NCBI GenBank assembly: GCA_016867005.1
Contig: VGKM01000003.1
Span: 1-32,863, forward strand
From: Candidatus Omnitrophota bacterium
Lineage (GTDB): Bacteria; Omnitrophota; Gorgyraeia; Gygaellales; Profunditerraquicolaceae
Reading direction: 5' to 3'
Length of the DNA stretch: 32,863 nucleotides
A program made the position numbers and the translations under genes. This document shows, piece after piece, positions 147 to 24,464 of this stretch (positions within the stretch are counted from its first letter, which is position 1; the number at the start of each line of letters is the position of its first letter). Under the pieces are notes generated by a model. That model saw nothing but the letters and a program-made list of their open reading frames with translations, did no database searches and had not been told where the DNA came from.

Positions 147-3100
147 ATGAAAACCGGGCCCAGGCGCAAATATTTAATAATTCCGGTTGTGGTTATTACG
201 GGGATAATTATTTCTTTTATCCTCTTTTTTATGTCAAAGCGCCTGGAGAATAAGCGCCTGATCGCCGATTTTGAGTTATTGGCAGATGCAAGAAGCGACG
301 CGATACAACTCAGTTTGCAGGACCATATATTCGAGCTTTATTCTTTGCAAAGTTTTTTTGATGCCTCGCAATCGGTAAATAGGCAGGAATTTTCCACTTT
401 TGTCTCTGTTATTTTGCCCCGCCATCTCGGAGTGATCTCTTTTGACTGGGTCCCGCGCATAACCGATTCTAACAGGGAAAAATTTGAGGAGGCAATCCAG
501 AAAGAAGGCGTTGGCAGCTTTAAAATCAGGGACCTGGGAAATGAAGGAAAACTTTCAGAAGCCAAGCCCCACCCCGAGTATTTCCCTATCTATTATTCAG
601 TCCCTCCTGAAAACAATGCAAATGTCCTTGGTTTTAACCTTATGTCCAGTGAAGTACGCTGGCAGGCAATGCTGAGGGCGGTAAATGATGATGCCCCGAT
701 AGCTACTCCCCGCATAAGATCAATCCGGAAGGGTTCGGATTATGCCTGCCGTTTGTTTCTGCCTGTATACCGCAATGGCGTTATTTATAATACAAAAGAA
801 CTTCGTCAGCAGAATTTATTAGGTTATGTTTCGACGCTTTTCTTGGTCAAGGATACTATAGACGAGGCCTTAAAAGGCATGAAGCAGGCAGGTATTAATG
901 TATGCCTCTATGACGAAAGCGCGCCTCCCGATGATAAATTGCTGTATTGCCATATAGAAAATGCCTCCTTAGGCAATAGTAAACAAGGCTCAAGCAGAGG
1001 ATTTATCGCCCGTTCTACATTTGATTTCGGCGGCAGAAAATGGAGGATTGTTGCAACGCCTACAGAAGAATTCTTTGCTGTAAGAAAATTTGCCGGGCCA
1101 TGGTTTGTGCTCTTTGGGTCATTTATTTTAACATTTTTCTTAGCATCGTATTTATTCAGTATCTTAAACAGGTCAGCTGAAATCGAAAGGTTGATCGAGG
1201 AGCGCACAGCGGAATTAATCAAAGCAAAAGATAAAGCTACGCTTTTGTATAAGGTAAGCCCCAGCGCTATTTTTACGGTTGATAAAGAAATGCGGATCGT
1301 AAGCTGGAATAATAAGGCAACCGAGATAACCGGCTATACCAATGAAGAGGTAATGGGTAAGCAGTGCTTTATGTTTACCGAATACCCCTGCAAGGATAAA
1401 TGTGGACTTTATTCTGACGATGTCTCAAAACCTATAATCGGCCAGGAATGCACGATAAAGAGAAAAGATGGCACGATGCGTATTGTTACAAAGAATGCCG
1501 ATTTTCTAAAAGACGAATTCGGCAATGTAATGGGAGGCATTGAGAGTTTTGAAGATATCACCGAAAGAAAGCTTGCTGAAAACGCAATTAGAATTGCTTT
1601 TGATATGACGCATTCCATCCTGGAAAAGGCGCCGTTCGGCATATTTGTTGTAAATAAAACAGGAAATATCGATTATGTAAATACCCGCATGATTGAGATC
1701 TCCGGCTCGACTTACGAGCAATTCAAGGGAATGAATATTCTGCAAGTCCCCACATATAAGGAACTCGGCCTGGACCAGAAAATAAGGGATGTAATAAATT
1801 CTGGCGAATCATTTTTTATGGGTGACGTTGATTATACTTCTTTTTACAGCAAGAAAAGGAGCATCAGGAATTTTACCGGGATGTCTTTTGAAGAAGAGGG
1901 GCAGAGAAAAGCGCTTATTTTCGTAGAAGATGTTACTGCGGAAAAGCAGGCTGAGCAAAAGCTTGAAGAGGCGGCAGAAGAATGGAAGAGGACATTTGAT
2001 TCTATTTCCGATATGATCTTTATCCAGGATATCGACTCTACTATATTAAGGGCAAATAAGGCCTTCCTTGAATCTATAAAATCTCCTGCCGGCGACGTAA
2101 TCGGAAAGAAATGTTATCAGGTAATGCATAACCTTGACCATCCCTGGCCGGAATGCCCGTTTGAAAAGACCAAGCAGGATAAACTTACGCATACCGAAGA
2201 GGTCCATGATAAAAATATCGGTATCCCGCTTTTGGTTTCTACTTCTCCGATCTTTGACAACAAGGGTAATTTGATCGGCTCTGTCCATATTGCCAAGGAT
2301 ATCTCTGATATTATCAGGGCAAGAGAGGAACTTGAAAAAAAGAATGAAGAACTGAGAAAGCTCGATCAGCTCAAATCAGATTTTGTTTCTACGGTTTCGC
2401 ATGAATTACGCACCCCGCTATCTATTACCAAGGAAGGGATAAGTTTAATAATCGACGGTATCCCGGGAGCGATAAATGAAAAGCAGCGGAAAATATTAAG
2501 TACGGCAAAAGATAATGTGGACAGGCTGGCGCGCATCATCAATGAATTGCTTGATATTTCAAGGATCGAGGCAGGCAAGATTGAGATCAGAAGAGAATCC
2601 ACCAGTTTGAATCATATTATAGAGACAGTTATTACTTCGTTTTCATTAAAGACGCAGGAAAAAAACCTGGAATTGAAGTTAACCATGCCCGGGAGGCCTG
2701 TTGAAATCTATATTGACCCGGATAAAATAATCCAGGTATTTACTAATTTTGTGGATAATGCGATTAAATTCACCGAGAAAGGCACAATTGAGGTTTCTTG
2801 CTTTGAAAAAGAAAATGAGGTTGAGTGTTGTGTCAGGGATTCGGGTATCGGCATATCCGCTGATGACCTGCCTAAGCTGTTTGATAAGTTCCAACAATTC
2901 GGCCGTACGCCCGGGCCGGGAGAAAAAGGGACTGGCTTAGGGCTATCTATAGCCAAAGGGATAATCGACCTGCATAAGGGGCGTATTTGGGTAGAAAGCG
3001 AATTCGGCAAAGGCACGAAGTTTTATTTTAGCCTGCCCAAATATACTTATGAAACTCTTACAAAGGAATATGTTGATTCAGGCATCGATGATTCTTTGAA

Positions 3101-3458
3101 AAATCATACTAAATTCTCTTATATAATTGTAACTGTCGTAGATTTTAACAAGATATCCGAAGAAATCGAAAAAAATAAATTACATGAAGTCCTGCGTGAT
3201 ATCGAGGCGGCCATACGCAACAGTTTACGCCGTTCAAAGGATACTACATTAAAAGGGGAAAAAGAATTCGGTGTCTTCTTGTATGACTGCAACAGGGAGA
3301 ATGCTTTAAGGGTCGAGGGTAGGATCGAGCAGGTCATAGAGGATTGTTTGATTACGCATAGTTTGAGCGGAAGGCTGCAATTTAAATTCGGCTGCGTTAC
3401 ATATCCGGATCAGGCATCAAATTATGAAGAACTGATCAATATAATCAGGAAAGAATAA
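147..3458 (+). CDS. Sensor histidine kinase: TM-CHASE-TM, three PAS domains, HisKA, HATPase, C-terminal degenerate GGDEF-like domain
   Basis: Two TM helices flank a CHASE-like region (YFPIYYSVPPENNANVLGFNL). PAS/PAC motifs (DITERK, DVTAEK, DISD). H-box SHELRTPL, N-box NFVDNAIKF, G1 DSGIGI, G2 GTGLGLSI. Tail has a GGDEF-fold pattern with GEKEF. Confidence 0.92.
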   Translation: MKTGPRRKYLIIPVVVITGIIISFILFFMSKRLENKRLIADFELLADARSDAIQLSLQDHIFELYSLQSFFDASQSVNRQEFSTFVSVILPRHLGVISFDWVPRITDSNREKFEEAIQKEGVGSFKIRDLGNEGKLSEAKPHPEYFPIYYSVPPENNANVLGFNLMSSEVRWQAMLRAVNDDAPIATPRIRSIRKGSDYACRLFLPVYRNGVIYNTKELRQQNLLGYVSTLFLVKDTIDEALKGMKQAGINVCLYDESAPPDDKLLYCHIENASLGNSKQGSSRGFIARSTFDFGGRKWRIVATPTEEFFAVRKFAGPWFVLFGSFILTFFLASYLFSILNRSAEIERLIEERTAELIKAKDKATLLYKVSPSAIFTVDKEMRIVSWNNKATEITGYTNEEVMGKQCFMFTEYPCKDKCGLYSDDVSKPIIGQECTIKRKDGTMRIVTKNADFLKDEFGNVMGGIESFEDITERKLAENAIRIAFDMTHSILEKAPFGIFVVNKTGNIDYVNTRMIEISGSTYEQFKGMNILQVPTYKELGLDQKIRDVINSGESFFMGDVDYTSFYSKKRSIRNFTGMSFEEEGQRKALIFVEDVTAEKQAEQKLEEAAEEWKRTFDSISDMIFIQDIDSTILRANKAFLESIKSPAGDVIGKKCYQVMHNLDHPWPECPFEKTKQDKLTHTEEVHDKNIGIPLLVSTSPIFDNKGNLIGSVHIAKDISDIIRAREELEKKNEELRKLDQLKSDFVSTVSHELRTPLSITKEGISLIIDGIPGAINEKQRKILSTAKDNVDRLARIINELLDISRIEAGKIEIRRESTSLNHIIETVITSFSLKTQEKNLELKLTMPGRPVEIYIDPDKIIQVFTNFVDNAIKFTEKGTIEVSCFEKENEVECCVRDSGIGISADDLPKLFDKFQQFGRTPGPGEKGTGLGLSIAKGIIDLHKGRIWVESEFGKGTKFYFSLPKYTYETLTKEYVDSGIDDSLKNHTKFSYIIVTVVDFNKISEEIEKNKLHEVLRDIEAAIRNSLRRSKDTTLKGEKEFGVFLYDCNRENALRVEGRIEQVIEDCLITHSLSGRLQFKFGCVTYPDQASNYEELINIIRKE

Positions 3459-3527: not shown

Positions 3528-3899
3528 ATGGGAAATAGCAGGATTTTGCTGGTTGATGATGAGACGGACCTGGTTGAAATGGTCAAGATGCGGCTTGAGG
3601 CCAATCATTACGAAGTAATTACCGCTTTTGACGGGCAGGATGGCCTGGAGAAGGCGCGCAGCGTAAATCCTGATTTGATCATCCTGGATATTATGCTTCC
3701 TAAGATGGATGGTTATAAGGTCTGCAGGATACTGAAATTTGATGAGAACTTCAAGAAAATACCCGTTATCATGTTTACCGCACGCGCTCAAGACCAGGAC
3801 AAGGAGACCGGTACGCAGGTCGGGGCAGATGCCTATATAACAAAACCGTTCGAGCCGGAAGTATTATTGAATAAAATCAATGAACTAATGCCAAAATAA
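3528..3899 (+). CDS. Single-domain response regulator (receiver only)
   Basis: LLVDDE acidic pocket, LIILDIMLP phospho-Asp, FTA, YITKPF; 123 aa with no output domain. Confidence 0.95.
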   Translation: MGNSRILLVDDETDLVEMVKMRLEANHYEVITAFDGQDGLEKARSVNPDLIILDIMLPKMDGYKVCRILKFDENFKKIPVIMFTARAQDQDKETGTQVGADAYITKPFEPEVLLNKINELMPK

Positions 3900-3906
3900 G
3901 GAAAAT

Positions 3907-5580
3907 ATGGATATCAGGCCGGATATTAATTTATTGATACAAAAAGGGATCATTAGCCAGGAACAGGTGGATAAAGCAAGGGAAGAGAGCGCCAAGACAG
4001 GGCTTCCTATTGAGAAATCACTTGAGCGGCTGGGTTTTATTTCTGAAGTGGATATCGCAAAAATTGCCGCGGATTCTATCGGCGTGCCTTTTATCAATTT
4101 GACCGATTACCTGATAGATGCTGAAGCAATCAAGCTTGTCCCTGAGGCATTGGCGAAGAAATTTAAAGCAGTGCCTATTTTTAAAATAGGCGATAGTTTA
4201 ACCGTGGCAATGGCAGATCCCCGCGATATCGCGGCAATCGATGAAATCAGGTTAAAAAGCAAGGTCGGGATAATCGAGCCGGTCATATCTACGGTAGACA
4301 TGATCCAGAAAGTTATTGACCAGTATTATGGGGCTATCGGTAGCGCCGAGGAATTAGTCAAGGGCCTGACCAAAGAAAAAATGGAGGAGCGCCTCAAAGG
4401 GACAAAGGGGCTTGCCGAGATCGCCGAAGATGCACCTATCGTAAAATTAGTAAGTTTAATAATCATGCAGGCCGTAAAAGACAAGGCAAGCGATGTGCAT
4501 ATTGAGCCGGCTGAAGATAAAGTCCTTGTGCGTTACCGCATAGACGGTATTTTGCATGAGGTACAAAAGATACCTAAACACTTGCAGAGTGCTTTGGCAT
4601 CGCGCGTCAAGGTAATGGCAAGGATGGATATTGCCGAGACCCGTAATCCTCAGGACGGAAGGATACAATTAAAGATGGAGAATAAGGATCTTGACCTGAG
4701 GGTTTCTTCTTTTCCGACAATAAACGGAGAAAACCTGGTTTTAAGGATTTTGGATAAATCATCGGTCCTTATGGGGCTTGCGGAACTCGGGTTTGCCGGC
4801 AAGGATTTAAAAAACTTTGATAAACTTATCAGGCGGCCAAACGGGATAATCCTTGTTACCGGCCCCACTGGTTCGGGAAAAACCACGACTTTGTATGCCG
4901 CGCTTTCCACTATCAATTCCATAGAAAAGAATATCATTACCATTGAGGACCCTGTTGAGTATGAGATCCCGCTTATCCGGCAGACGCAGGTAAATCCGAA
5001 GGCAGGGCTTACTTTTGCTAACGGCTTGCGCAGTATCCTTCGCCAGGACCCCGATATAATCATGGTCGGCGAAATACGCGATAAAGAAACCGCAGAGATA
5101 GCGATCCAGGCGTCTTTAACCGGGCATTTAGTTTTTTCAACGCTGCACACAAACGATGCCCCGGGCGCCCTTACCCGCCTGATAGATATGGGGATTGAAC
5201 CGTTTTTAATCGCAAGTTCCATCACCGGTATCCTGGCTCAGAGATTAGTGCGTGTGATCTGCCCGAAGTGTAAAGAAAAATATACTCCTTCGGATGAGGT
5301 CATGCATGATTTAGGGTTGAAGGAGAAAGTTGAATTGTACCGAGGAAAAGGATGTATGCACTGTAAAGAGACCGGTTTTTCCGGAAGAGTAGGTATTTTT
5401 GAATTACTTCTTATGAATGAGGAGATAAAGAACCTGGTTACCGCAAAGGCATCAAGCGGCGATATCAAGAAAAAGGCCTTGGCTCAAGGGATGACTACTT
5501 TATATGAAGACGGGATGGAGAAAATAAAGAGCGGAGTAACTACCGCAGAAGAAATGCTTAGAGTGACAGAGGAGGTGTAG
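3907..5580 (+). CDS. pilB: Type IV pilus/T2SS extension ATPase (PilB/MshE/GspE family)
   Basis: ASDVHIEP, Walker A GPTGSGKTTT, Asp box TIEDPVEY, LRQDPDIIMVGEIRD, His box TGHLVFSTLHTND, Zn motifs CPKC and CMHC. Confidence 0.93.
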   Translation: MDIRPDINLLIQKGIISQEQVDKAREESAKTGLPIEKSLERLGFISEVDIAKIAADSIGVPFINLTDYLIDAEAIKLVPEALAKKFKAVPIFKIGDSLTVAMADPRDIAAIDEIRLKSKVGIIEPVISTVDMIQKVIDQYYGAIGSAEELVKGLTKEKMEERLKGTKGLAEIAEDAPIVKLVSLIIMQAVKDKASDVHIEPAEDKVLVRYRIDGILHEVQKIPKHLQSALASRVKVMARMDIAETRNPQDGRIQLKMENKDLDLRVSSFPTINGENLVLRILDKSSVLMGLAELGFAGKDLKNFDKLIRRPNGIILVTGPTGSGKTTTLYAALSTINSIEKNIITIEDPVEYEIPLIRQTQVNPKAGLTFANGLRSILRQDPDIIMVGEIRDKETAEIAIQASLTGHLVFSTLHTNDAPGALTRLIDMGIEPFLIASSITGILAQRLVRVICPKCKEKYTPSDEVMHDLGLKEKVELYRGKGCMHCKETGFSGRVGIFELLLMNEEIKNLVTAKASSGDIKKKALAQGMTTLYEDGMEKIKSGVTTAEEMLRVTEEV

Positions 5581-5581
5581 G

Positions 5582-5791
5582 ATGGTAATTTTAGTTATTA
5601 TCGGGGTTGTTTCTTTGATTTTAGGGTTGTTCCTTATGACCGATCCAAAATTATTGGAAAAGTTTATTAATCAGTTGAACAAAGTCATTATAGCAACAAG
5701 GCCGCCGAGCCTTAAGCAGAATAAGCTCCTCGGGATCTTCTTGATTGTTTTTTCCTTAGTTATGTTTTATATAGGGATGAAGTTAAGGTAA
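5582..5791 (+). CDS. Small hypothetical membrane protein with two TM helices
   Basis: 69 aa with hydrophobic N- and C-terminal helices; GGAGG SD; fills the gap between the ATPase and platform genes. Confidence 0.75.
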   Translation: MVILVIIGVVSLILGLFLMTDPKLLEKFINQLNKVIIATRPPSLKQNKLLGIFLIVFSLVMFYIGMKLR

Positions 5792-5803
5792 CTGATAAGG
5801 ATC

Positions 5804-7018
5804 ATGCCAAACTTTAAATATAGGGCAAGAGATAAGTTTTCGAGGGCAGTTAGCGGCACAATTGCCGCATCCGGAGAAGACGAAGCAGCCAAAAAGCTCC
5901 AGGATATGGGGTATGTGCCTATATCTGTTGAAAAGGCCCGCGATTTTTCCGCCCATGACCTGCTTAAGAAATTCAAAAGCGTAAAGCTGGAGGAGGTTAA
6001 TGTTTTTACCCGCCAGCTTTATTCTTTGCAAAAAGCCGGCGTCCCTCTTTTGTCCAGTTTGGAAGTAATCGCTATCCAAAGTAAGAACATGTATTTCAGA
6101 AGTGTTATCGAAGAAATAGCGGCAAATATCAGGTCAGGCAATAGTTTTTCTGCCTCTCTTCGAAAATACCCAAAGATCTTCGACGAAGTTTATGTCAGTA
6201 TGGTTAAAGCAGCAGAGTCAGGCGGTAATATCGCCAATATCCTGGAAAGGTTAAGCGCCTTACTGGAACAGGATATTGATACAAGGGCAAGGATCAAATC
6301 TGCAACGCGTTATCCCTTGCTTGCTTTTGTAGTTTTGTGTATCGGGTTCCTGATCATGGTCACTTTTGTAATCCCCCGTTTTTCAGTGATTTATGGCCAA
6401 TTTAATGCGGAGCTGCCTTTGCCGACCCGCGTTTTAATTATGATAAACCTCTTAATCAGAAAATTCTGGTTTTTGTTTATCACGCTTATTATCGCAGGTT
6501 TTATCGGTTTTAGAAAATTCATTAGATCCGGCTTTGGCCGTCCTATATGGGATAATTTTAAGCTTAAAGTTTATGTCCTGGGCCCTTTGATGCAAATACT
6601 GATAATGTCCCGTTTTGCCAGGATCACCAGTTTATTGATGAAAAGCGGGGTCCCGATATTGGAGATCCTGGATTTAGTGGCAAATACATCAGGTAATATT
6701 ATTATCGCCCGCGCCATAAGAAACGTCAAAGAAAGCGTTAACCAGGGAAGGGGCATTTCAGAGCCGATGAAAGCAAGCGGCCTTTTCCCGCCGGTTGTCG
6801 TACAGATGGTGGCAATAGGAGAGCAAACCGGCAAAGTCGATGAGCTGCTTTTAAGCGTCGCAGACTACTATGACCGCGAATCCAGCTATATGATCAAGAA
6901 TTTGAGTACCTATATTGAACCGGCGTTGATCTTCGTTTTAGGAATAATGGTTTTAGTGATGGCACTAGCGATATTTTTGCCGATGTGGAACCTGATCAGG
7001 TTATTCAGGCCTTCTTAA
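5804..7018 (+). CDS. pilC: Type IV pilus inner-membrane platform protein (PilC/MshG/GspF family)
   Basis: MPNFKYRARD start, FTRQL...AGVPL, AESGG, YP, IGEQTG, IEP...AIFLPMW. Confidence 0.93.
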   Translation: MPNFKYRARDKFSRAVSGTIAASGEDEAAKKLQDMGYVPISVEKARDFSAHDLLKKFKSVKLEEVNVFTRQLYSLQKAGVPLLSSLEVIAIQSKNMYFRSVIEEIAANIRSGNSFSASLRKYPKIFDEVYVSMVKAAESGGNIANILERLSALLEQDIDTRARIKSATRYPLLAFVVLCIGFLIMVTFVIPRFSVIYGQFNAELPLPTRVLIMINLLIRKFWFLFITLIIAGFIGFRKFIRSGFGRPIWDNFKLKVYVLGPLMQILIMSRFARITSLLMKSGVPILEILDLVANTSGNIIIARAIRNVKESVNQGRGISEPMKASGLFPPVVVQMVAIGEQTGKVDELLLSVADYYDRESSYMIKNLSTYIEPALIFVLGIMVLVMALAIFLPMWNLIRLFRPS

Positions 7019-7020
7019 AG

Positions 7021-7404
7021 ATGGCAAAGCGCGGCCTTACGCTCTTTGAGTTATTGGTTTCGGTTTGCGTTATTTCTACTCTTATCGGTTTATTTGCAAT
7101 TTATGCCAACAATACCGTAAAGGTCTCAAGAGAGATTGCCTTGCAAAGCGAGCTTAAGAATATCCGGATGTCTATCCAGCATTTTTATATTTTAAACGGA
7201 AGATATCCCAACGATTTGTTTGAGTTAACGCGTGAGCCCTTGACAATAGGCAGTGATAATAGTAAAATAATACTTCAAAGTTACTTGGGTTCTTTCAGGG
7301 TTGACAAGGAAGGCTGTATGCTCGACCCTTTCTTCAATAGGTATGTTTATAACAAAGTAGATGGCTCGGTTCATCCGGGAGGCAATGATTACCAGCGGTG
7401 GTAA
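7021..7404 (+). CDS. Prepilin-like protein (minor pilin/pseudopilin)
   Basis: Start reassigned to ATG 7021: MAKRG/LTLFELLV type III signal with Glu+5; GRYP and DPF..RYVY motifs of pseudopilin-type heads. Confidence 0.8.
   Translation: MAKRGLTLFELLVSVCVISTLIGLFAIYANNTVKVSREIALQSELKNIRMSIQHFYILNGRYPNDLFELTREPLTIGSDNSKIILQSYLGSFRVDKEGCMLDPFFNRYVYNKVDGSVHPGGNDYQRW
7240..7268 (+). promoter_or_regulatory. Near-consensus sigma70 promoter inside the upstream pilin-like gene, likely driving the major pilin
   Basis: TTGACA (7240-7245), 17 nt spacer, TAAAAT (7263-7268); about 210 nt upstream of the pilin ATG. Confidence 0.6.
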
Positions 7405-7479
7405 ATTTTTGGAATTAATAACACCCCGCGCTTATCGGAATTGCGCGGGCGTACCCTTATTGGGTAAAAAGGAGGGGTA

Positions 7480-7881
7480 ATGGGTAAAAAGTCAGGTTTT
7501 ACTTTAATTGAATTAGTAATGGTCATAGTTATCCTCGGGATACTCGCCTCAGTCGCATTACCGACATTTTTCAACTTGCAGGAAGATGCAAAAAGAGCAG
7601 CTGTTAAAGGCGATTTAGGCGGCCTTCGCAGCGCAATTGCTATCTGGTATGCCAAGACAGCGGCATCGGCTGGTGTGGCATCATATCCTTCTATTACAGA
7701 ATTGAATTCTTCTCCCGGCGGGCCTTTAGCATTCGGCGTCCCGGTCAACCCTTATACAAATTCAAGCGGAATAATCGCGGGTGCCGCAGAAACTGCTAAT
7801 TCAAGCCAGGGATGGATTTATGACGTTACTACCGGCAGGATTTGGAGTTCCGCTCCGCAGACCCAGGGTTCGGGTTATTAG
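7480..7881 (+). CDS. Probable major type IV pilin (MshA/PilA-like)
   Basis: MGKKSG/FTLIELVMVIVILGILASVALP; strong SD AAGGAGG; flanked by its own candidate promoter and a downstream hairpin. Confidence 0.88.
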   Translation: MGKKSGFTLIELVMVIVILGILASVALPTFFNLQEDAKRAAVKGDLGGLRSAIAIWYAKTAASAGVASYPSITELNSSPGGPLAFGVPVNPYTNSSGIIAGAAETANSSQGWIYDVTTGRIWSSAPQTQGSGY

Positions 7882-7907
7882 TAAGATATTTTAGTTTGAC
7901 TTAAACG

Positions 7908-7949
7908 TAATGGCTGGCTTTTCAGAACAATTTGGAGAGCCAGCCATTA
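7908..7949 (+). terminator. Long stem-loop after the major pilin (terminator/attenuator or mRNA stabiliser)
   Basis: TAATGGCTGGCT (7908-7919) is the exact reverse complement of AGCCAGCCATTA (7938-7949), extendable with G-U pairs. No classical U-tract follows. Confidence 0.6.
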
Positions 7950-7955
7950 AATTAT

Positions 7956-9461
7956 ATGATTAAGCGGCCGTATTTTAAACTTAAGTTTATCCTCATTGTT
8001 TTATTGGCTTGTATAAGTTTTGGTGTTTATATCAATTCTTTACAGGGCGGGTTCCTGATTGATGACCATGCAGGGATACTTGAAAATAAAAATATCCACG
8101 ATTTAAATTCCTACCTTAAGAATAATTTTAATTTTTCGCCAGGCGCTTTTGTTGAATTGGTGCGCGCAGTAATCTGGAACTTCTTTGGCAGCAATACCTT
8201 GCCTTATCACTTATTCAATGTCTTGGCGCATGTTGTTACGGTCATCCTTATATTTGTACTTTGCAATATTTTATTCAAAAATATAACCCTGTCATTTTTA
8301 ACAGGGCTAATTTTTGCGGTACATCCCATTCATACCGAAGCGGTAAGCTGGATTTCGGGCGGGCCTTATGTTTTATCAGCGTTATTTTTTACGCTTTCGC
8401 TTATTTTTTACATAAAATCAGAGCAGTCGATGTTTTATCTGGTTTTAACTGTTCTTGCTTTTGTATTGAGTTATCTGACCGGGAATTCCGCAGTTTCGCT
8501 TCCCCTTATATTTATAGTATATGAATTATTTTTCAGGGACAAAACACAAGATAGGGGAGTATTTTCCAGAAAGATAAGGATTTTTGTATTAGCTGCGCTA
8601 TTATTAACGGCAATAATGGTGGCAGCCATATTCTTTTTAAGAAGAAACACATTTATCCATACTATTTTTTATTTTAAGGGATTCAGCTATTTGGTAGTTG
8701 TTACAAAAGCGTTTCTTTATTATTTAAAGATCATTTACCTCCCCTTAGCAAGGGGGCTGTACCATCCTTTTGCCTATAACTCGGTTGATACCAGCAAGTT
8801 GAGCCCGGCATTCTTTGTTTCTCTGTCTGTGCTGGTATTTTCAATATTTTTGTTTTTTAAATGCCTTAAGAAAAACAAGCCGGTATCTTTTAGCATCGCT
8901 TTGTTTTTTGTCACCTATCTGCCTTATTCCAATATTATCCCTGTATGCAACATCATTTCCGAACGCTACGTTTATCTTCCGTCTTTGGGGGTCTCGCTTC
9001 TTATCGCCGCACTTTTTTTAATAGCATGGGAGGCGATAAATAAAGACCTTTCTTCTAAGAAAGTTTTAAGGATTATTGCTATGGTATTGCTGGTTTTATT
9101 TATTTTAAGTTACTCAATTCTGACGGTAAAACGCAATAATGAATACAAAGACATCATTACTTACTGGAAAACAAACATAAATAACTTTCCGGACGGTTAC
9201 ATGGCCTACAATAATCTGGCCGGTACATTTTATGTGATGGGCCAGACCGAGCAGGCCCTGGCTTATTCCTGGATAACGCTGATGATCAAGGCTGACCAGC
9301 CGCATGTCTGGTGCAATCTGGGTAAAGTTTATTTTGAGAAAAAAGATATGGCGATGTCGGAATTCTGCTATAAAGAAGCATTGAAGCTGGATAAGGGGTA
9401 TCCGCCGGCGATCCAGGGGATGAAACTGATCAAAGAAAAAGAGCTCCCTAAAAAGGATTAA
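7956..9461 (+). CDS. TMTC-like GT-C glycosyltransferase (protein O-mannosyltransferase-like) with C-terminal TPRs
   Basis: Multi-TM protein; DD motif after TM1 (FLIDDHAGILEN); YHLFNVLAH; LIFAVHPIHTEAVSWISG; ERYVYLPSLG; TPR-like AYNNLA and WCNLGKVY..YKEALKLD. ATG 7956 preferred over TTG 7932, which lies inside the hairpin. Confidence 0.8.
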   Translation: MIKRPYFKLKFILIVLLACISFGVYINSLQGGFLIDDHAGILENKNIHDLNSYLKNNFNFSPGAFVELVRAVIWNFFGSNTLPYHLFNVLAHVVTVILIFVLCNILFKNITLSFLTGLIFAVHPIHTEAVSWISGGPYVLSALFFTLSLIFYIKSEQSMFYLVLTVLAFVLSYLTGNSAVSLPLIFIVYELFFRDKTQDRGVFSRKIRIFVLAALLLTAIMVAAIFFLRRNTFIHTIFYFKGFSYLVVVTKAFLYYLKIIYLPLARGLYHPFAYNSVDTSKLSPAFFVSLSVLVFSIFLFFKCLKKNKPVSFSIALFFVTYLPYSNIIPVCNIISERYVYLPSLGVSLLIAALFLIAWEAINKDLSSKKVLRIIAMVLLVLFILSYSILTVKRNNEYKDIITYWKTNINNFPDGYMAYNNLAGTFYVMGQTEQALAYSWITLMIKADQPHVWCNLGKVYFEKKDMAMSEFCYKEALKLDKGYPPAIQGMKLIKEKELPKKD

Positions 9462-9477
9462 ATAAATGCAGATTAAG

Positions 9478-9486
9478 TGTTATAAT
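9478..9486 (+). promoter_or_regulatory. Extended -10 promoter, probable leaderless transcript for the minor pilins
   Basis: TGTTATAAT is a perfect TGnTATAAT; ATG 9493 lies 7 nt downstream with no SD. Confidence 0.55.
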
Positions 9487-9492
9487 AATCGC

Positions 9493-9987
9493 ATGAAAAG
9501 GCGCGGGTTTACTCTTATTGAAGCAATAATGGTCATTATGATCGTCGGGATCCTTGCCGCAGTAGTCTCTGTTGATTTTATCTCATCTTTTTCTACGTCG
9601 AAAATAGAAGCGGCCAGGTTTAAGCTGAAGAGCGATATTATTTATGCCCAGGAGTTAAGTGTTACGCAGCAGTTGAATCACGGCGTTATTTTTGATCCGG
9701 GCGGGGAAACCTATTCGGTTTATAAACAAACTACCGGCAATATCATTAATAACCCTTTGACAGGGGCGCCTTTTACAGTGAATTTTAATACGGACCCGGA
9801 TTTAACCGGCATAGATTTAGTATCTGCCAATTTCGGCGCGCCGACAACAAACCGTGTTGAATTCAATAGCTATGGCATTCCTTCCGACGGCACAACTGTT
9901 TTGGCTGCTAACGGCTCAGTTTCTCTTAGTTATTCGGGGCTAAACGGTTTGGTTACGGTAACCAAGAATACAGGGATGGTTAATTGA
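9493..9987 (+). CDS. Minor pilin (MshC/FimT/GspH-like)
   Basis: MKRRG/FTLIEAIMVI; AARFKLKSDIIYAQ; VEFNSYGIP; C-terminal VTVTKNTGMV. Confidence 0.85.
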   Translation: MKRRGFTLIEAIMVIMIVGILAAVVSVDFISSFSTSKIEAARFKLKSDIIYAQELSVTQQLNHGVIFDPGGETYSVYKQTTGNIINNPLTGAPFTVNFNTDPDLTGIDLVSANFGAPTTNRVEFNSYGIPSDGTTVLAANGSVSLSYSGLNGLVTVTKNTGMVN

Positions 9988-10373
9988 TGGGGAAAAAAGG
10001 GTTTACTCTTATCGAGACGGTAATTGTGATTATTGTTTTAGCAATTACCCTTACGCCCTTCAGCGTCCTTACGACCAATGTAATAAGCCGCAATGTCCGT
10101 TCTCAGGGGACGGCAACAGCTGTCAGCCTTGCTGAACAGGAAATGGAGAGGGTGACGGCTCTTAGGTTTTCTTTGGCCGTTGATGAGGCGGCTGCTTCTT
10201 TTTCCGCTCCTTTTAACGGTTTTACAAAAGAAATAATTGTAGATTATGTTAATTCAGGCAGCCTGAATACTCCTGTTGCAGGGCCTACTGATTATAAAAG
10301 AGTACAGGTAAAGGTCACAAGCGCCACTGCCGATACCATAACCCTTACAACATTAATAACAAATGACTGGTAA
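9987..10373 (+). CDS. Minor pilin (MshD/PilV-like)
   Basis: MGKKG/FTLIETVIVI; AVSLAEQEMERV; YKRVQVKVT; start overlaps the upstream stop codon. Confidence 0.85.
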   Translation: MGKKGFTLIETVIVIIVLAITLTPFSVLTTNVISRNVRSQGTATAVSLAEQEMERVTALRFSLAVDEAAASFSAPFNGFTKEIIVDYVNSGSLNTPVAGPTDYKRVQVKVTSATADTITLTTLITNDW

Positions 10374-10878
10374 AAAAAGTTTTACACTTATTGAACTTGT
10401 TATGGTGATGGTAATCGTAGGCATAATCGCCGGTATCGGTGTGCCTGTCATACTGACAACTGCTGATGCCTGGTCATTGGCAAGTTTTTTTCAGGATAAT
10501 GCGGTTTCTCAGGCAATAGTTGCGCAAAGCAGGATGTCCAGGGAGATCCGCCGGCTCTTAAATGACGCATCTGTAGCAGGCGCAAGTTCAACACAATATT
10601 CATTTACTGACCTAGGCAGCAATGTGATCACCTATAACAGAAGCGGCAATACCCTGATGCGTAATTCCGACGGGCTGGCAGCCAATGTTACAGCATTAAG
10701 TTTCATATATTATGATGATGATAACAATACTATAACTACCCCGGTAGTAAGCCCAGATGATACCGATATCAGGATAGTCCAGGGTAACTTTTCAATTCTG
10801 GCAGGCAGCAATACCTTGAATTTCCGATTTGCAACCAGGCCACAGAATTTAAGGCGGTTAAATGAAAAATTTAAATAA
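10363..10878 (+). CDS. Minor pilin (MshO/PilW/GspJ-like)
   Basis: MTGKKS/FTLIELVMVM; RMSREIR; LAANVTALSFIYYD; C-terminal RPQN. Confidence 0.85.
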   Translation: MTGKKSFTLIELVMVMVIVGIIAGIGVPVILTTADAWSLASFFQDNAVSQAIVAQSRMSREIRRLLNDASVAGASSTQYSFTDLGSNVITYNRSGNTLMRNSDGLAANVTALSFIYYDDDNNTITTPVVSPDDTDIRIVQGNFSILAGSNTLNFRFATRPQNLRRLNEKFK

Positions 10879-12364
10879 AATTAAAGGCGTCAGTTTAGTT
10901 GTTGCCGTAGCAATAATGTTGATCTGCGGCGTACTGGGAGCTGTGATGGCGCAATTATTGGGAGTTACTTCGCGCGGCTCCGTGGATTATATGCGTTCTT
11001 CCCAGGCCTTAGGACTGGCTCAGGCAGGCATCAATTGGCAGATGATGCAACTAGCTACTGCAGCAGATTGGGATGTTTTGACCGGGCAGACGGTTTCTTT
11101 AGGGGGTTGGATATTTACGACAAGCTTAAGCAATTGGGCGCAGCCGCAAACCGACAGCTCTACAAGCACGCGCCTGGATATAAACGTTACAGGAAAGACA
11201 AACGGCTCGGATGGCGCTATCATCCAGCGCACGATGTCTCAATCCGCCTGGAAACTTCCTTCAGCAACTAAATTCGCACTTTTTTGGGGGAGAGACGTGG
11301 CAAATCTTTCTTTCAGTAATGTAGCGGTTTCCGGAGATTTTTGGTCAATCGGCTCAACCAGTATTCCCGGGAGTTCTTCCGTAACAAGCGGAAGCGCCTA
11401 TAGGCCGCAAGGAGAGGATATTTCAGGGGCGGGCTCATATACGGAAGTCGATGTTGGTGTATTCCCGTATTTTTCCAATTTTACAGGTTCAACTTCCACT
11501 CATTCTACTCCGCCTTTTGATGCGTCTTATTTTACAACTTTAACCAGTGACTACGATAGCCGTGAGGCAGCTTGCGTTACCGGCACTGATATTAACCAGA
11601 ATTCAAGCTTGGCTTTATCAGGCAATACAGTTTGCTGCCGCGACTTTAACACAAACGGGACTATAACAATAAGCGGTAACGGGTATATTATTGCCAATCG
11701 GGATATGTTGTTGCATACGCAGAACGGTGATTCAGGGACATTGACATTTTCTCCTTCCGGAGGGAACATTGTTTTGATCGCCGGGCGCGATATCCTTATT
11801 AATTCAGGCCAGAATGATACTCCGGTTACAATGAATTCCGGGGTAAGGATGTATTCGAAAAGCGACGGGGTTAATACCGGCGAGATTACCATTCGCAATA
11901 ATACGACAAACATCGACGATGCTTTAATATTGGCTGATCGGCGCATTATTATTCAGGACAGTGCAAATATAACCGGTTCTACTCTTTTTGTCAATGACCC
12001 TGGCAATGCCACAAATAATGTGCTTCGAATTGAGGATTCAGGCACAAGCGTTGGCACGCAAGCGTCTCCCTGCAATGTAATAAGTATCGGCCGCGGGACA
12101 CCGACAATCCAGATTACGGATACTGCAAGCGTTATAGGCCTTGTTTATCAAAGAGATGCAAATAATTTGGGAAGGACCAGGATTGACGGGCAAAATAATG
12201 CCAACAGGGTTAATATCACCGGTTCTGTAATAGCCAATGCTTTTCAGGGCAATGATATAGATAATGCCAATATTACTTATGACCCGGATAGTTTGCCTGA
12301 TCCTCCTATTGAAGGATTTGACGGTTTTGCTACCAAAAAACCTGATTCCTGGAGCGGAAATTGA
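10862..12364 (+). CDS. PilX/MshP-like minor pilin with a large Asn/Thr/Ser/Gly-rich C-terminal domain (putative adhesin)
   Basis: KIKG/VSLVVAV with no Glu+5, as in PilX/GspK; SSQALGLAQAGINW; about 370 aa beta-rich extension; overlaps the upstream gene. Confidence 0.8.
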   Translation: MKNLNKIKGVSLVVAVAIMLICGVLGAVMAQLLGVTSRGSVDYMRSSQALGLAQAGINWQMMQLATAADWDVLTGQTVSLGGWIFTTSLSNWAQPQTDSSTSTRLDINVTGKTNGSDGAIIQRTMSQSAWKLPSATKFALFWGRDVANLSFSNVAVSGDFWSIGSTSIPGSSSVTSGSAYRPQGEDISGAGSYTEVDVGVFPYFSNFTGSTSTHSTPPFDASYFTTLTSDYDSREAACVTGTDINQNSSLALSGNTVCCRDFNTNGTITISGNGYIIANRDMLLHTQNGDSGTLTFSPSGGNIVLIAGRDILINSGQNDTPVTMNSGVRMYSKSDGVNTGEITIRNNTTNIDDALILADRRIIIQDSANITGSTLFVNDPGNATNNVLRIEDSGTSVGTQASPCNVISIGRGTPTIQITDTASVIGLVYQRDANNLGRTRIDGQNNANRVNITGSVIANAFQGNDIDNANITYDPDSLPDPPIEGFDGFATKKPDSWSGN

Positions 12365-12383
12365 TGTAGTTTGGCTGAATTTA

Positions 12384-12392
12384 TGATATACT
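12384..12392 (+). promoter_or_regulatory. Candidate extended -10 promoter for the pilMN-O-P genes
   Basis: TGATATACT (TGnTATAcT) about 10 nt before ATG 12403; no SD visible. Confidence 0.4.
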
Positions 12393-12402
12393 ATTTATTT
12401 AT

Positions 12403-12654
12403 ATGAAAATATCAGGCCTGAAGATTGATTCCATTTCCTCGCTATTCTCTCCGAAAACGAATTCCTTTGTTATCGCTGACCTTAGTTCAGGGTTAAAGCT
12501 TTCTTATGCCAATTTTAGTAACGGTATCAAGGTTTTAGCGGCAGAAGATATTGCATGCAGCCACCAAATGCATGAGGTGATATTGAGCTCACTGCGCGCT
12601 TTCTTAAAAGATAATAATATACAGTCAAGGAACACGATTCTTCCCCTTTCTTAA
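12403..12654 (+). pseudogene. N-terminal fragment of the PilM(-PilN) gene, separated by an apparent 1-nt frameshift
   Basis: Ends FLKDNNIQSRNTILPLS*. The next ORF's frame is open from 12618 and reads PFLSSVFVKRIQLP, which continues a PilM-type sequence. Confidence 0.7.
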
Positions 12655-12680
12655 GCTCTGTTTTTGTAAAAAGAATACAA

Positions 12681-14027
12681 TTGCCCTGTGTTTCGGACGC
12701 GGAATTGCTGGAGGCGATTAAATGGAAGATAAAGGATGAACTGCCGTTTGAACTTGAAAAAGCGGTTTTCGATTATCAGATCATCAAGAAGAGTTCTTTA
12801 AATGACGGCTCAAAGGTATTTGACCTGGCCTGTATTGCAGCGCTTGAAGAAGAAATAACCAGCCAGGTAGTTTTATTAAAACAGGCAGGGCTTAATGTCA
12901 TCGGAGTAGGTTTTGCGCCTTTCGGTTATATCAGGCTGATAGAAAAGTATCTGGCAGAGGATAAAGGGGCAGCCCAGGCAGTATTATACCTATGGGCAAA
13001 TGCCAGTTATCTTAATATTTATAAAGACAATAAGCTGGTTTTCTTCAGGGAGCTTCCGGTCTCCCTCAATAAATTCAGAAATTCTCTTTCTGCTGCGTTG
13101 GTCACCGAGAAAGGCAAAGTCCAATTAAGCCCTCTTCAGATAGAAGACATCCTTTTTAAACACGGCGTCCCGATCCCCGAATCGGGCCTTTATAACGACA
13201 AAACAATGGCAAGCCAGATCATGGCAATGTGGCGCCCAGCCCTTGAAGCATTAGCCCAGGAAATAAAGCGTTCCTTTGTTTATTATAAATCGCAATTCCA
13301 GGAAGAAGATGCCGGTAAAATATTTGTTGCTGCTGAGGCACAAAATATAATCAACCTGGATAAATTCCTGGCAAAAGAGCTATCTTCCGAAGCCGAAGTT
13401 TTTCCCGTTATAGAGAAAATCTTGCCTCCGCCGCAAACCAGCCCTTCGGAATTGGTAAAAATTTACCCGGGTATCGGGCTGGCAATTGATTATAAACACA
13501 ATATCAATCTTCTGCCGCGGCAATTCCGGACAGAGAAAATTGAGAATGTCCAGAAGATCTCTCTGCGTTGGGTCGCTTTTATCGCATTTTTATTGTTAGC
13601 GGTTTCATATATCCTTGCCCGGGCAGGCGTGACTGCTTATGAAAAAAGATTGGACCGCACATTATTCCAGCTCAATGTCTTATCCGAGATAAAGAATATA
13701 AAAAATAAGCTGGATGCATTCGAGATCTTTTCTGCCGGTGTCAAGGACAGAGAGCTGCCGTTAGGGGAGATTTTTAAAAAAATCAGCAATATTTCCCCCA
13801 GAGAGATGTTTTTTAATTCACTCGTAATTAATTGCGGCTCAAAGACAGGTTCGATTTCCGGCTATGTTAAGACCACAAATCAAAACGCAGATTCAATCCT
13901 TACCCAGTTTATCAGCCAGTTAAATTCTTCAAAGATGTTTTTTGATGTTAATCTGAGCGAGCTTAAGAAAACCGGCACTCAGGGGTTTGATTTGGCAAAT
14001 TTTGAAATAAGCTTTAGGATAAAATGA
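12681..14027 (+). CDS. pilM: PilM-PilN fusion (MshI-like), C-terminal part of the frameshifted gene
   Basis: LP...ELLEAIKW..KDELPF...VFDYQ; LKQAGL; QEIKRSFVYY; GLA followed by the PilN motif INLLP, a TM helix and a PilN-like periplasmic domain. Confidence 0.8.
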   Translation: MPCVSDAELLEAIKWKIKDELPFELEKAVFDYQIIKKSSLNDGSKVFDLACIAALEEEITSQVVLLKQAGLNVIGVGFAPFGYIRLIEKYLAEDKGAAQAVLYLWANASYLNIYKDNKLVFFRELPVSLNKFRNSLSAALVTEKGKVQLSPLQIEDILFKHGVPIPESGLYNDKTMASQIMAMWRPALEALAQEIKRSFVYYKSQFQEEDAGKIFVAAEAQNIINLDKFLAKELSSEAEVFPVIEKILPPPQTSPSELVKIYPGIGLAIDYKHNINLLPRQFRTEKIENVQKISLRWVAFIAFLLLAVSYILARAGVTAYEKRLDRTLFQLNVLSEIKNIKNKLDAFEIFSAGVKDRELPLGEIFKKISNISPREMFFNSLVINCGSKTGSISGYVKTTNQNADSILTQFISQLNSSKMFFDVNLSELKKTGTQGFDLANFEISFRIK

Positions 14028-14590
14028 TGGAACTCACAAGAGAACAGAAGAAGATCATTTATATTGCCGCGTTGGTTGCGGCATTTTTGATGTTTTTCTG
14101 GATTTTTATTTATATACCGCAAAGCCGTAAGCTTAAGGAAATCCAGCATAAATTAAGTATCACCGAGGGCGAAATTTCCGATATAAACCGTATCACCGGA
14201 GGCATGCCTGAAGCAGAGGCCGTACAAGGCCTGAATAATAAGCTTAACCAGATGATAGCAGGTTTCGGAGATTCCGACGATGATATAATCGATGCATTGT
14301 CTAAGGCAGCCAGGGAGCTGAAAATAACCATCAATAATATTTCACTTTCCAGCCGTCAGTTGATAAACTCTCAAATTCCCGGATATGAAGTCAGGGAAAT
14401 GCCGGTTTCTTTGAAGCTTACGGCTGAATACAGGCCGTTGGGGGAATTTTTGTACAGGATAAGGGATAATTTCCCTGTTTTATTAACAGTAAGGAATCTT
14501 TCAATAAGCGGCGAAGGAGAAGGGGATCCCCGTTTAGACGTGGATTTGGAGATCTCGGCCTATTTATTATCGCCTGCTTCAGGGCAATAG
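14024..14590 (+). CDS. pilO: PilO/MshJ-like alignment-complex protein
   Basis: N-terminal TM, coiled coil, EMPVSLKLTAEYRPLGEFLYRI; ATGA overlap with the upstream gene. Confidence 0.82.
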   Translation: MMELTREQKKIIYIAALVAAFLMFFWIFIYIPQSRKLKEIQHKLSITEGEISDINRITGGMPEAEAVQGLNNKLNQMIAGFGDSDDDIIDALSKAARELKITINNISLSSRQLINSQIPGYEVREMPVSLKLTAEYRPLGEFLYRIRDNFPVLLTVRNLSISGEGEGDPRLDVDLEISAYLLSPASGQ

Positions 14591-14594
14591 AAGA

Positions 14595-15050
14595 ATGGAT
14601 AAGCAAAAAAAAGAGATTATCATTACCGGGGTACTGGCATTGGTCTTCGTTTTTACTCTTACAAACAGTATCCGCAAGATAAAGGCGCGCTATAGCCCTG
14701 CAGCAAGGACTGTTGTTCAATCTATACCAGGGAAGGCGCAGGTATCAGTACCTTCTGTATCTCTAAAACAGGAAGATGCCGCGCCGCTAAAGAATATCGA
14801 GAAAGAACAACTGGATTGGATCAGGGATCCTTTTTCAGGAAAGATCTATTTTAGCAAAGAAGAAGGTGCGGCGATTGATTTAAACCTGACCGGTATTGTC
14901 TGGGATGAGCAAAAACCCCGGGCGCTTATCAATAGCGACATAGTCCAGGAAGGAAGCACGATAGGCCAGTTCAGGGTATTGAAAATTTTTAAAGATAAAG
15001 TAGTATTGGAGCAGGGGGCGAAAACTTTTGAGCTCCGTTTAAAACAGTAG
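14595..15050 (+). CDS. PilP/MshK/GspC-like protein
   Basis: N-terminal TM, RDPF motif, LTGIVW...ALIN..IVQEG..I...VLKI.KDKVVL. Confidence 0.75.
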   Translation: MDKQKKEIIITGVLALVFVFTLTNSIRKIKARYSPAARTVVQSIPGKAQVSVPSVSLKQEDAAPLKNIEKEQLDWIRDPFSGKIYFSKEEGAAIDLNLTGIVWDEQKPRALINSDIVQEGSTIGQFRVLKIFKDKVVLEQGAKTFELRLKQ

Positions 15051-24026: not shown

Positions 24027-24464
24027 ATGTTTTACGGCGAGTATCTTCATTCTATAGACAGGAAAGGCCGTCTCATTCTGCCTGCCAAATTTCGCGAGTC
24101 AGCTAAGAACAATTTCATTGAGAAATTCTTTATGACGCGGGGTTTGGACAAATGCCTTTTTATGTTCGGGGAAGAGGAGTGGAAACAACAGGAAAATAAA
24201 TTTAAATCCGTGTCCTTTACCAAGCAGGAATCGCGTACATTTAACCGCCTGTATTTTTCCGGAGCCGTAGATATCGTGCCTGATAAGCAGGGGAGGATCC
24301 TGGTACCGCAATACCTGAAGGATTTTGCGGAAATCAAAAAAGATGTTATTGTGGTCGGGGTCTCCAACAGAATAGAGATTTGGTCAAAAGACAAATGGCA
24401 GAGTTTTTATGGGAATTCCCAAAAGTCCTTTGAAGAGATCGCTGAGAAATTAATCGATTTATAA
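24027..24464 (+). CDS. mraZ: Transcriptional regulator MraZ
   Basis: DRKGRLILP, DKQGRILVP, IEIW. Confidence 0.97.
   Translation: MFYGEYLHSIDRKGRLILPAKFRESAKNNFIEKFFMTRGLDKCLFMFGEEEWKQQENKFKSVSFTKQESRTFNRLYFSGAVDIVPDKQGRILVPQYLKDFAEIKKDVIVVGVSNRIEIWSKDKWQSFYGNSQKSFEEIAEKLIDL

Follow-up and report, generated by a model that had tools for sequence, protein, structure and literature searches.

In the current study, we analyzed a 32,863-nucleotide stretch of DNA (the window; positions 1 to 32,863 of the forward strand of contig VGKM01000003.1, GenBank assembly GCA_016867005.1) from an uncultured lake bacterium of the phylum Omnitrophota, whose assembly measures 1.52 Mb and is 86% complete. Our attention was drawn to a membrane protein gene that directly follows the major pilin gene of a type IV filament operon. 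The encoded protein has the glycosyltransferase C (GT-C) fold, which is established at the level of structure prediction, and its dedication to the type IV pilus operon is supported by gene neighborhoods. On the combined grounds of sequence, model, and analogy, we think it probable, though by no means certain, that this enzyme glycosylates the major pilin. We also found that in most related operons the same slot behind the pilin gene is taken by a second GT-C enzyme with no detectable homology to the first. Three elements of the window are central to what follows:

7480 to 7881, + strand: presumed major pilin, a 133-residue prepilin and the proposed acceptor (Pfam N_methyl, E = 6.6e-8; strong Shine-Dalgarno sequence)
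7908 to 7949, + strand: conserved terminator-like RNA hairpin between the pilin and enzyme genes (19-bp stem, -30.6 kcal/mol)
7932 to 9461, + strand, probable start at ATG 7956: predicted GT-C fold membrane glycosyltransferase with 11 transmembrane (TM) helices and a periplasmic C-terminal tetratricopeptide repeat (TPR) domain (AlphaFold2 model; structural matches; invariant DD, HPxHxE, and ER motifs)

The open reading frame (ORF) of the enzyme encodes 509 residues when read from TTG 7932 and 501 residues if translation starts at ATG 7956 (Met9). Because the TTG codon is covered by the 3′ arm of the hairpin, the ATG is probably the true start; most orthologues align to the protein only from about residue 15 to 30 onward, and a clear Shine-Dalgarno sequence is found at neither codon. 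That the gene is real follows from its 92 relatives at 45 to 68% identity (E ≤ 1e-77) and from motif residues that are invariant in all 39 orthologues compared, namely, D44, D45, H131, P132, H134, E136, Y146, K259, H278, E344, and R345. The landmarks listed in a preliminary description of this sequence are all where it had put them: the pair D44-D45 just after the first TM helix (residues 13 to 32), in the first periplasmic loop; HPIHTEAVSWISG at residues 131 to 143; ERYVYLPS at residues 344 to 351; C-terminal TPRs (Pfam TPR_1, E = 1.3e-9 at residues 459 to 488); and multiple TM segments, which number 11 in the model. Conservation is highest in periplasmic loops 2 and 5 (majority fraction, 0.90 and 0.87, versus 0.54 to 0.71 for the TM blocks). 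The first TPRs contain invariant asparagines (N415, N418, N427, and N462), which we take to be reminiscent of the asparagine ladder in the TPRs of OGT. One orthologue (G371) had been considered a possible pseudogene, with two TAA codons reported; its ORF is open over 494 residues in L097, and the stops are taken to lie beyond its end.

An AlphaFold2 model of the enzyme, based on the 39 orthologues, has a predicted local distance difference test (pLDDT) score of 87.2 and a predicted template modeling score of 0.88; in it, 11 TM helices and helical loops on the periplasmic side are followed by seven helices (ca. 3.5 TPRs) at residues 408 to 504. An exhaustive structural search with this model (VIA) gave Pmt1-Pmt2 as the best match (6p2r_B; Z = 20.6 over 344 residues at 4.3 Å), followed by AglB (3waj_A; Z = 20.2), STT3B (6s7t_A; 19.9), Pmt4 (18.8), PglB (5ogl_A; 18.4), and ArnT (5f15_A; 16.6), so that protein O-mannosyltransferases and ArnT are among the best structural matches. 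Foldseek was weaker: its best hit was STT3A (E = 2.4e-4; template modeling score, 0.46), and all four matches at E ≤ 0.001 were to STT3, with PglB and ArnT also among its matches. Since the VIA scores lie above the caution line for helical bundles (Z of ca. 13) and Foldseek agrees, we regard the GT-C fold as established at the prediction level; the fold check proposed in the preliminary description therefore came out in its favor. An acidic motif in the first extracytoplasmic loop, a GT-C criterion, is present as D44-D45 in 39 of 39 orthologues. The Lys/Arg-rich composition of the N terminus suggests that it is cytoplasmic, and the predicted helices place the C-terminal TPRs, after 11 TM segments, on the noncytoplasmic side. 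By sequence alone, little of this is visible. No sequence-level match to the TM domain was found in the PDB (orthologue-profile and phmmer searches gave TPR proteins only), Pfam identified only the TPRs, NCBIfam gave only subthreshold TPR matches, and the Pfam families PMT_2 (PF13231), PMT (PF02366), TMTC_DUF1736 (PF08409), YfhO, and Wzy_C did not match the enzyme even at E ≤ 10.

The enzyme gene lies immediately 3′ of the pilin gene, with a gap of 50 nucleotides (nt) between them (7881 to 7932), and is followed by three minor pilin ORFs with N_methyl matches; thus, the enzyme does sit between the major and minor pilins, and the interval singled out in the preliminary description spans pilin and enzyme together. 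The pairing of pilin and enzyme is strongly conserved. Among 22 loci at ≥45% identity in GTDB species genomes, a pilin gene is directly upstream of the enzyme in 20, which is every informative locus (L016 and L020 lack upstream DNA). The prepilin gene ends 60 to 271 nt ahead of the enzyme match (786 nt in L006, where pilins are in tandem), and PilC is encoded upstream in 19 of the 20 informative loci. A metagenome scan added six further orthologues, and all five with upstream DNA are preceded by PilB, PilC, and pilin. Of 401 evenly sampled Omnitrophota genomes, 302 encode some relative of the enzyme (E ≤ 1e-10) and 8 encode an orthologue (E ≤ 3.4e-171; next best, 1.5e-52), the latter spanning five GTDB families. 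Exactly these 8 also give the best eight pilin matches (E, 9.9e-84 to 4.8e-44; 61 to 100% identity), and the pilin always adjoins the enzyme; its 13 orthologues share a mean column identity of 76%. Some loci and members of the genome sample are identical genomes (e.g., L006 = G057 and L007 = G371), so these sets are not independent. Synteny and co-occurrence thus bear out the earlier proposals that the pilin adjacency is conserved in relatives and that the enzyme is dedicated to the pilus. The major pilin is, moreover, the only constant partner, given that the minor pilins and a 500-residue protein encoded farther downstream differ or are missing in L003, L004, L007, L018, and L021.

A second line of evidence came from related pilus operons that lack the enzyme, for which we took the 24 next-best pilin loci as a comparison set. 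In 18 of these 24, the next gene on the 3′ side of the (last) major pilin gene encodes a YfhO-type protein of 770 to 845 residues (L093:3630-5987, − strand; L094:6518-8851, + strand; L095:3559-6075, − strand; L096:3663-5975, − strand; and also L105 to L112, L114 to L116, L118, L119, and L121). Four of these slot proteins were scanned against Pfam; three match YfhO (PF09586; E, 2e-21 to 4e-33), the fourth shares 50% identity with one of those three, and the remaining slot proteins match a hidden Markov model made from these four (E, 1e-68 to 1e-253). The AlphaFold2 model of a YfhO-type protein (pLDDT, 85.6) ends in a beta-rich domain instead of TPRs, and a structural search with it returned Pmt4 (Z = 17.6), STT3B (17.2), Pmt1-Pmt2 (17.0), and PglB (16.7), as well as ArnT (Z for these five, 17.6 to 13.8); the top 13 rows were all GT-C proteins. 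The two slot proteins share a position and a predicted fold but differ in size and C-terminal domain, and homology between them was undetectable by hhalign (probability, 10.6%).

Two of the YfhO-type operons, L093 and L094, belong to the window's own family. Their PilB and PilC proteins are 72% and 65% identical to those of the window, which falls inside the range seen among TPR-type operons (63 to 79% and 57 to 72%, respectively), so that the enzyme was swapped within one operon lineage, along with divergence of the pilin (54 to 60% identical to the window pilin in L093 and L094; 51 to 80% in TPR-type operons). That two unrelated enzymes, which have only lipid-linked-sugar GT-C chemistry in common, alternate behind one pilin family argues for glycosylation as the function of the slot and for the pilin as its acceptor; we consider this to be the strongest argument on both counts. 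Our literature search, judged by titles and abstract openings, found no paper linking YfhO to pilins. In the available part of the literature on it (PMC5836110), YfhO is described from Bacillus subtilis lipoteichoic acid and Listeria wall teichoic acid, and a C55-P-sugar donor is proposed.

These comparisons also bear on whether an active enzyme might have another acceptor, such as the minor pilins or tip complex, another periplasmic or outer membrane protein, or else a glycan or lipid in the vicinity of the pilus machinery. The fold and the conserved catalytic loops would fit any acceptor, and the characterized YfhO enzymes act on teichoic acids and not on proteins, as far as the same partial source goes (PMC5836110). 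Furthermore, relatives at 24 to 36% identity are not linked to pili (PilB, PilC, PilMN, or a prepilin motif was found in the fetched flanks of 0 of 57 such loci), which implies that acceptors other than pilin are used in the family at large. We nevertheless find another acceptor unlikely here, because the major pilin alone is constant in the 20 informative loci, while the minor pilins and the 500-residue protein vary or are absent, and because the type of enzyme tracks the pilin subtype.

The preliminary description had called the enzyme TMTC-type, after the TMTC1-4 proteins, which are protein O-mannosyltransferases of the animal endoplasmic reticulum. In this regard, the likeness extends to the 11 TM helices, the noncytoplasmic TPRs, the DD of loop 1, and the ERxxY of loop 5, and the AVHPIHT stretch is identical to a human TMTC3 fragment in the accessible portion of PMC7801869. 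A TMTC_DUF1736 cluster also appears in the ESM Atlas results (rank 21; score, 0.93). However, the shared motifs (DD, ERxxY, and HPIHTE) are common to a wider bacterial family with 1,834 representatives at E ≤ 1e-30, and the enzyme has far fewer TPRs than TMTCs, is bacterial, and stands in a pilin context. We placed the seven TMTC motifs defined by Eisenhaber et al. 2021 (PMC7801869, Table 4, a source available to us in part) on aligned sequences of 13 orthologues plus 101 relatives. M1 (DD, loop 1) is present and kept throughout the alignment, as is M7 (ERxxY, loop 5), with E344, R345, and Y348 found in 39, 39, and 37 of 39 orthologues. For M6 (PxxP, TM9), the enzyme has LPYSNIIP (P331 and P337), with a different spacing. 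Four motifs of the seven are missing. For M2 (SHKSYRP, loop 1), the enzyme has no YRP-like string, and just 1 of 39 orthologues has one, versus 78 of 101 relatives. At M3 (RxD, loop 2), the enzyme has G144-P-Y146; Arg occurs in 3 and Asp or Glu in 0 of 39 orthologues, whereas the relatives have Arg in 80 and Asp or Glu in 87 of 101. Glycine at position 144, directly after SWISG, is found in 32 of 39 orthologues, so the preliminary remark that homologues have Arg there was accurate. At M4 [KE(T/Q)xxT, loop 3], the enzyme has G184-N185, with Lys or Arg in 0 and Glu in 0 of 39 orthologues, versus 84 and 84 of 101 relatives; M3 and M4 are both complete in 63 of 101. M5 (DW, loop 4) is likewise missing, with Y277-H278 at what, by our own placement, is the aligned position. 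The pilus clade thus has fixed G144-x-Y146 and G184-N185 where relatives have RxD and KE. On this motif evidence, the name TMTC-type is fair for kinship within the wider family but not for the active site of the pilus clade, in which TMTC_DUF1736 of Pfam matched 0 of 39 orthologues (E ≤ 0.01).

The same Pfam scan of the orthologues gave PMT_2 in 1 of 39 (E = 1.4e-5) and PMT in 0 of 39. Beyond this tight group of proteins of ca. 500 residues (45 to 65% identity) there is a gap, followed by thousands of relatives of 500 to 900 residues that are 25 to 35% identical over their whole length; among 23 distant relatives scanned, PMT_2 matched 12, PMT matched 4, and TMTC_DUF1736 gave a subthreshold match in 1. 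The enzyme's sequence relatives are thus bacterial TPR-containing GT-C proteins of the PMT_2 type, a large uncharacterized family in which the pilus clade forms a separate branch with a remodeled donor site. A GT-C domain tree with 114 rows recovered the pilus clade as monophyletic (Shimodaira-Hasegawa-like approximate likelihood ratio test support, 100) on a long stem (0.77). In its sister group (P0108-like), no pilus genes were found in L127, L128, and L132, the loci with enough flanking DNA. A second TPR-GT-C subfamily (L148:4650-6653, L193:3156-5147, and L200:4755-6860; 663 to 702 residues; 25 to 26% identical to the enzyme), which has kept KE and lost the Arg of M3, was seen in contigs from soil and peat metagenomes, where it adjoins PilB/PilC genes of the opposite strand, and L148 also has two adjoining pilin genes.

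In TMTC models, as presented in the part of PMC7801869 at hand, residues of the YRP, RxD, and KE motifs contact the sugar, phosphate, and metal. With all three motifs lost in the pilus clade, the donor sugar or the mode of phosphate binding probably differs from those of TMTC, ArnT, and the other bacterial relatives. Alternatively, the loss may point to a catalytically dead GT-C scaffold that acts as a pilin chaperone or assembly adaptor in a TfpY-like role, its TM domain holding the N-terminal helix of the pilin and its TPRs the globular domain. Protein binding is the role of TPR domains, and nonenzymatic pilin accessory genes such as TfpY do exist, according to the part of PMC11841053 available to us. 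This explanation strikes us as decidedly unlikely, since DD and ER never vary and conservation peaks in periplasmic loops 2 and 5, and since the alternate occupant of the slot, a YfhO-type GT-C, lacks TPRs, which speaks for shared chemistry rather than a shared scaffold.

The closest precedent for pilin glycosylation by such an enzyme is TfpW, the pilin D-arabinofuranosyl transferase of Pseudomonas aeruginosa group IV (Pa5196/PA7). As described in the available part of the report on it (10.1101/2020.04.19.049825), TfpW is a GT-C protein of 646 residues, modeled on ArnT, with 11 TM segments and a cytoplasmic N terminus; periplasmic loop 1 carries a DDx that is essential, the C terminus forms a TPR domain in the periplasm, and there is a YX6PFX7P "chain-length" motif in loop 4; its gene lies immediately 3′ of pilA, and its loss abolishes pilin glycosylation. 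Compared with this description, the enzyme shares the gene position, the GT-C class, the 11 TM helices, the loop-1 DD, and the C-terminal TPRs; a terminator-like hairpin after the pilin gene is a further likeness to P. aeruginosa pilin-accessory cassettes, as portrayed in the part of PMC11841053 to which we had access. The enzyme is shorter (509 or 501 versus 646 residues), has only ca. 3.5 TPRs, and comes from another phylum, and D-arabinofuranose pathway genes were not seen in the operon. The preliminary description had assigned TfpW to a different family and knew of no characterized system of the kind proposed; this needs correction, because TfpW, on the partial account cited above, already embodies the same design (GT-C, 11 TM, DDx, TPR, and location after pilA). 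By analogy, then, the enzyme is of TfpW-like design, and as TfpW already shows the principle, no new class of system is at hand. Within that design, the enzyme stands out by the remodeled donor site of the pilus clade and by an unexpected YfhO-type alternate.

Loop 4 merits separate mention, given that TfpW is sufficient for both polymerization and transfer of D-arabinofuranose in the part of the report at our disposal (10.1101/2020.04.19.049825). Were the enzyme likewise an oligosaccharyltransferase and/or polymerase, as proposed for TfpW, it would build or transfer an oligosaccharide and not a single sugar, and its Y264-x6-P271-x7-P279 does resemble the TfpW motif. Yet the stretch is one residue shorter than YX6PFX7P and lacks the Phe, and Y264 and P271 are shared by the family at large (96 and 101 of 101 relatives; P279 is found in 35 of 39 orthologues). 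Genes for a pentofuranose or oligosaccharide pathway were not seen in the operon, and we regard this oligosaccharide variant as highly improbable. TfpO/PilO and PglL, which are also pilin glycosylation enzymes, are Wzy_C-type O-oligosaccharyltransferases of another fold family that use undecaprenyl diphosphate-linked oligosaccharides; the enzyme differs from them in showing no trace of Wzy_C. Like tfpW, tfpO lies directly after pilA, according to the available text of the same report (10.1101/2020.04.19.049825). No paper on pilin glycosylation in Omnitrophota was found in our literature search, as judged from listings and selected passages.

Returning to single-sugar glycosylation of the major pilin, we infer an active enzyme that takes its sugar from a polyprenyl-phosphate donor, has the pilin as its acceptor, and binds it through the TPRs; a polyprenyl-phosphate-sugar mechanism acting on the pilin is, in our view, probable. 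In outline, a cytoplasmic GT2 synthase would charge polyprenyl phosphate with a sugar, which would then be flipped, in its lipid-linked form, to the periplasmic side. There, the enzyme would bind it at the conserved loops (D44-D45 in loop 1, HPIHTE and Y146 in loop 2, K259 and H278 in loop 4, and E344-R345 in loop 5), the short periplasmic TPR domain would hold the membrane-anchored pilin, and the sugar would be moved to Ser or Thr residues of the pilin ahead of assembly. By analogy, the modification would probably benefit the cell by masking the surface of the pilus, e.g., against pilus-specific phages.

As to the donor, the genome search for a polyprenol-phosphate-mannose synthase suggested in the preliminary description gave candidates. 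The genome encodes three short GT2 proteins as candidate donor synthases, whose best NCBIfam matches are AglJ, PpgS, and a dolichyl-phosphate hexose transferase, together with a fusion of GT2 and GtrA_DPMS_TM, so that it can probably make lipid-linked sugars; none of these genes is in the operon, and the GT2 candidates score below the family cutoffs. At G000:C58 (L083:1486-3291), a 601-residue ORF joins GT2, GtrA_DPMS_TM, and a methyltransferase-like region, with a weak PMT_2 match ca. 2.3 kb downstream; the two may be a lipid-sugar synthase/GT-C pair. At G000:C197 (L081:1-2285), two DPM/AglJ-like GT2 genes adjoin a multi-TM ORF with a C-terminal motif that, by eye, we take to resemble the O-antigen ligase (Wzy_C) signature.

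A number of findings weigh against pilin glycosylation by the enzyme. The main caveat is that the YRP, RxD, and KE donor-site motifs, which most relatives keep, are lost in the pilus clade, and this could mean altered or lost catalysis. The pilins have no obvious glycosylation tract; the preliminary description spoke of Ser/Thr-rich pilins, whereas their combined Ser and Thr content is 14 to 22%, with no mucin-like tract. Six of the 24 related operons (L113, L117, L120, L122, L123, and L124) have no GT-C gene in the slot, so the function is not obligatory. Pfam scans found no donor-synthesis or flippase gene in the operon, the three subthreshold GT2 candidates are not specific to the pilus system, and the genome has other GT-C enzymes (four PMT_2 matches over the cutoff) that could use the same donors.

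The hairpin between the pilin and enzyme genes is unusually stable for its composition (z = -6.73; 0 of 200 shuffles). A comparable hairpin follows the pilin stop codon in all 20 TPR-type loci (12 to 28 pairs; -17 to -35 kcal/mol), and hairpins were seen by eye in most YfhO-type loci as well, often with a U-run. When 12 of the 20 were aligned, a selection biased toward similar-looking stems, 15 pairs were formed, with 95.4% of cells paired and compensatory changes in 5 pairs; 0 of 500 shuffles reached this, and slid controls gave 29 to 59% pairing. Rfam had no match for the region. Rho-independent terminators after the pilin gene are common in P. aeruginosa pilin-accessory cassettes and have been proposed to attenuate accessory gene expression, as the accessible part of PMC11841053 has it. 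Similarly, the hairpin here may be a leaky terminator that would hold expression of the enzyme low relative to that of the pilin. Besides the structure, the sequence of the stem is conserved across genera (consensus, AATGGCTGRCTTTTC ... GAAAAGYCAGCCATT), which exceeds the needs of a plain terminator.

One broader, albeit doubtful, possibility is that pilus operons of Omnitrophota carry a general cassette of pilin, leaky terminator, and GT-C enzyme, in which either of two GT-C families unrelated in sequence can fill the enzyme position (YfhO type in most and TPR type in a minority). The donor site of the TPR type would have been rebuilt (YRP, RxD, and KE lost; Y146, K259, and H278 fixed), so that its donor sugar or its way of binding phosphate would be unlike any in TMTC, PMT, or ArnT, and YfhO, known only from teichoic acid glycosylation, would here be a pilin glycosyltransferase. 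If so, glycosylation of pili would be the norm in the Omnitrophota, small bacteria that probably live as predators or in dependence on hosts. Moreover, one branch of the very large and still unnamed family of bacterial TPR-GT-C proteins, the bacterial kin of the human TMTC enzymes, would gain a function that can be put to the test. The natural swap of TPR-type and YfhO-type enzymes behind closely related pilins offers a ready comparison for how GT-C enzymes choose protein acceptors, and the remodeled donor site gives a starting point for finding new donor chemistry.

The pilin, hairpin, and enzyme are part of a single codirectional type IV filament operon (3528 to 15050, all on the + strand), the other members of which are as follows:

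3528 to 3899, + strand: response regulator at the head of the operon (Pfam Response_reg, E = 1.3e-28), also found upstream of PilB in related loci
3907 to 5580, + strand: PilB/GspE-type assembly ATPase with N-terminal MshEN (Pfam T2SSE, E = 6.8e-144; MshEN, E = 1.6e-19)
5804 to 7018, + strand: PilC/GspF platform protein (Pfam T2SSF, E = 5.4e-61)
6985 to 7404, + strand: pilin-like protein of 139 residues (weak GspG match, E = 6.2e-5), kept in some related loci
9466 to 9987, + strand: minor pilin, GspH/ComGD-like (N_methyl, E = 2.4e-7; GspH, E = 6.5e-11)
9984 to 10373, + strand: minor pilin, PilV-like (N_methyl, E = 8.2e-6; PilV, E = 8e-5)
10363 to 10878, + strand: minor pilin (N_methyl, E = 1.7e-5)
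10862 to 12364, + strand: Ser/Thr-rich protein of 500 residues with an N-terminal TM segment and no Pfam or NCBIfam match, present in 10 of the 20 informative orthologous loci
12681 to 14027, + strand: PilM-PilN fusion of 448 residues (Pfam PilM_2, E = 7.6e-15; PilN, E = 6.9e-4)
14024 to 15050, + strand: two small ORFs (188 and 151 residues) that end the operon, PilO/PilP-like by position only, with no Pfam match, and kept after PilMN in related loci

The PilM-PilN fusion also occurs in related loci, where it measures 480 to 580 residues, and a 69-residue ORF with two hydrophobic stretches (5582 to 5791) lies between the PilB and PilC genes. Tandem major pilin genes were seen in L098 (G057; 6929 to 7809) and L006, with a gap of ca. 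770 nt to the enzyme, and also in the YfhO-type loci L095, L096, L106, and L115. In L122, where the slot holds no GT-C gene, the pilins are followed by a gene for a 377-residue Laminin_G_3 (ConA-like lectin) protein (L122:6849-7982). Upstream of the response regulator in the window, a CHASE-PAS-histidine kinase is fused to a GGDEF domain (147 to 3458), and in related loci PilB is preceded by as many as four response regulators; the placement of this kinase/GGDEF protein and the response regulator ahead of a PilB bearing MshEN suggests that the pilus is under cyclic di-GMP control. Finally, the far end of the window (24027 to 32648) contains the beginning of a dcw cluster (mraZ, rsmH, an FtsI-type penicillin-binding protein gene, murE, murF, mraY, and murD).

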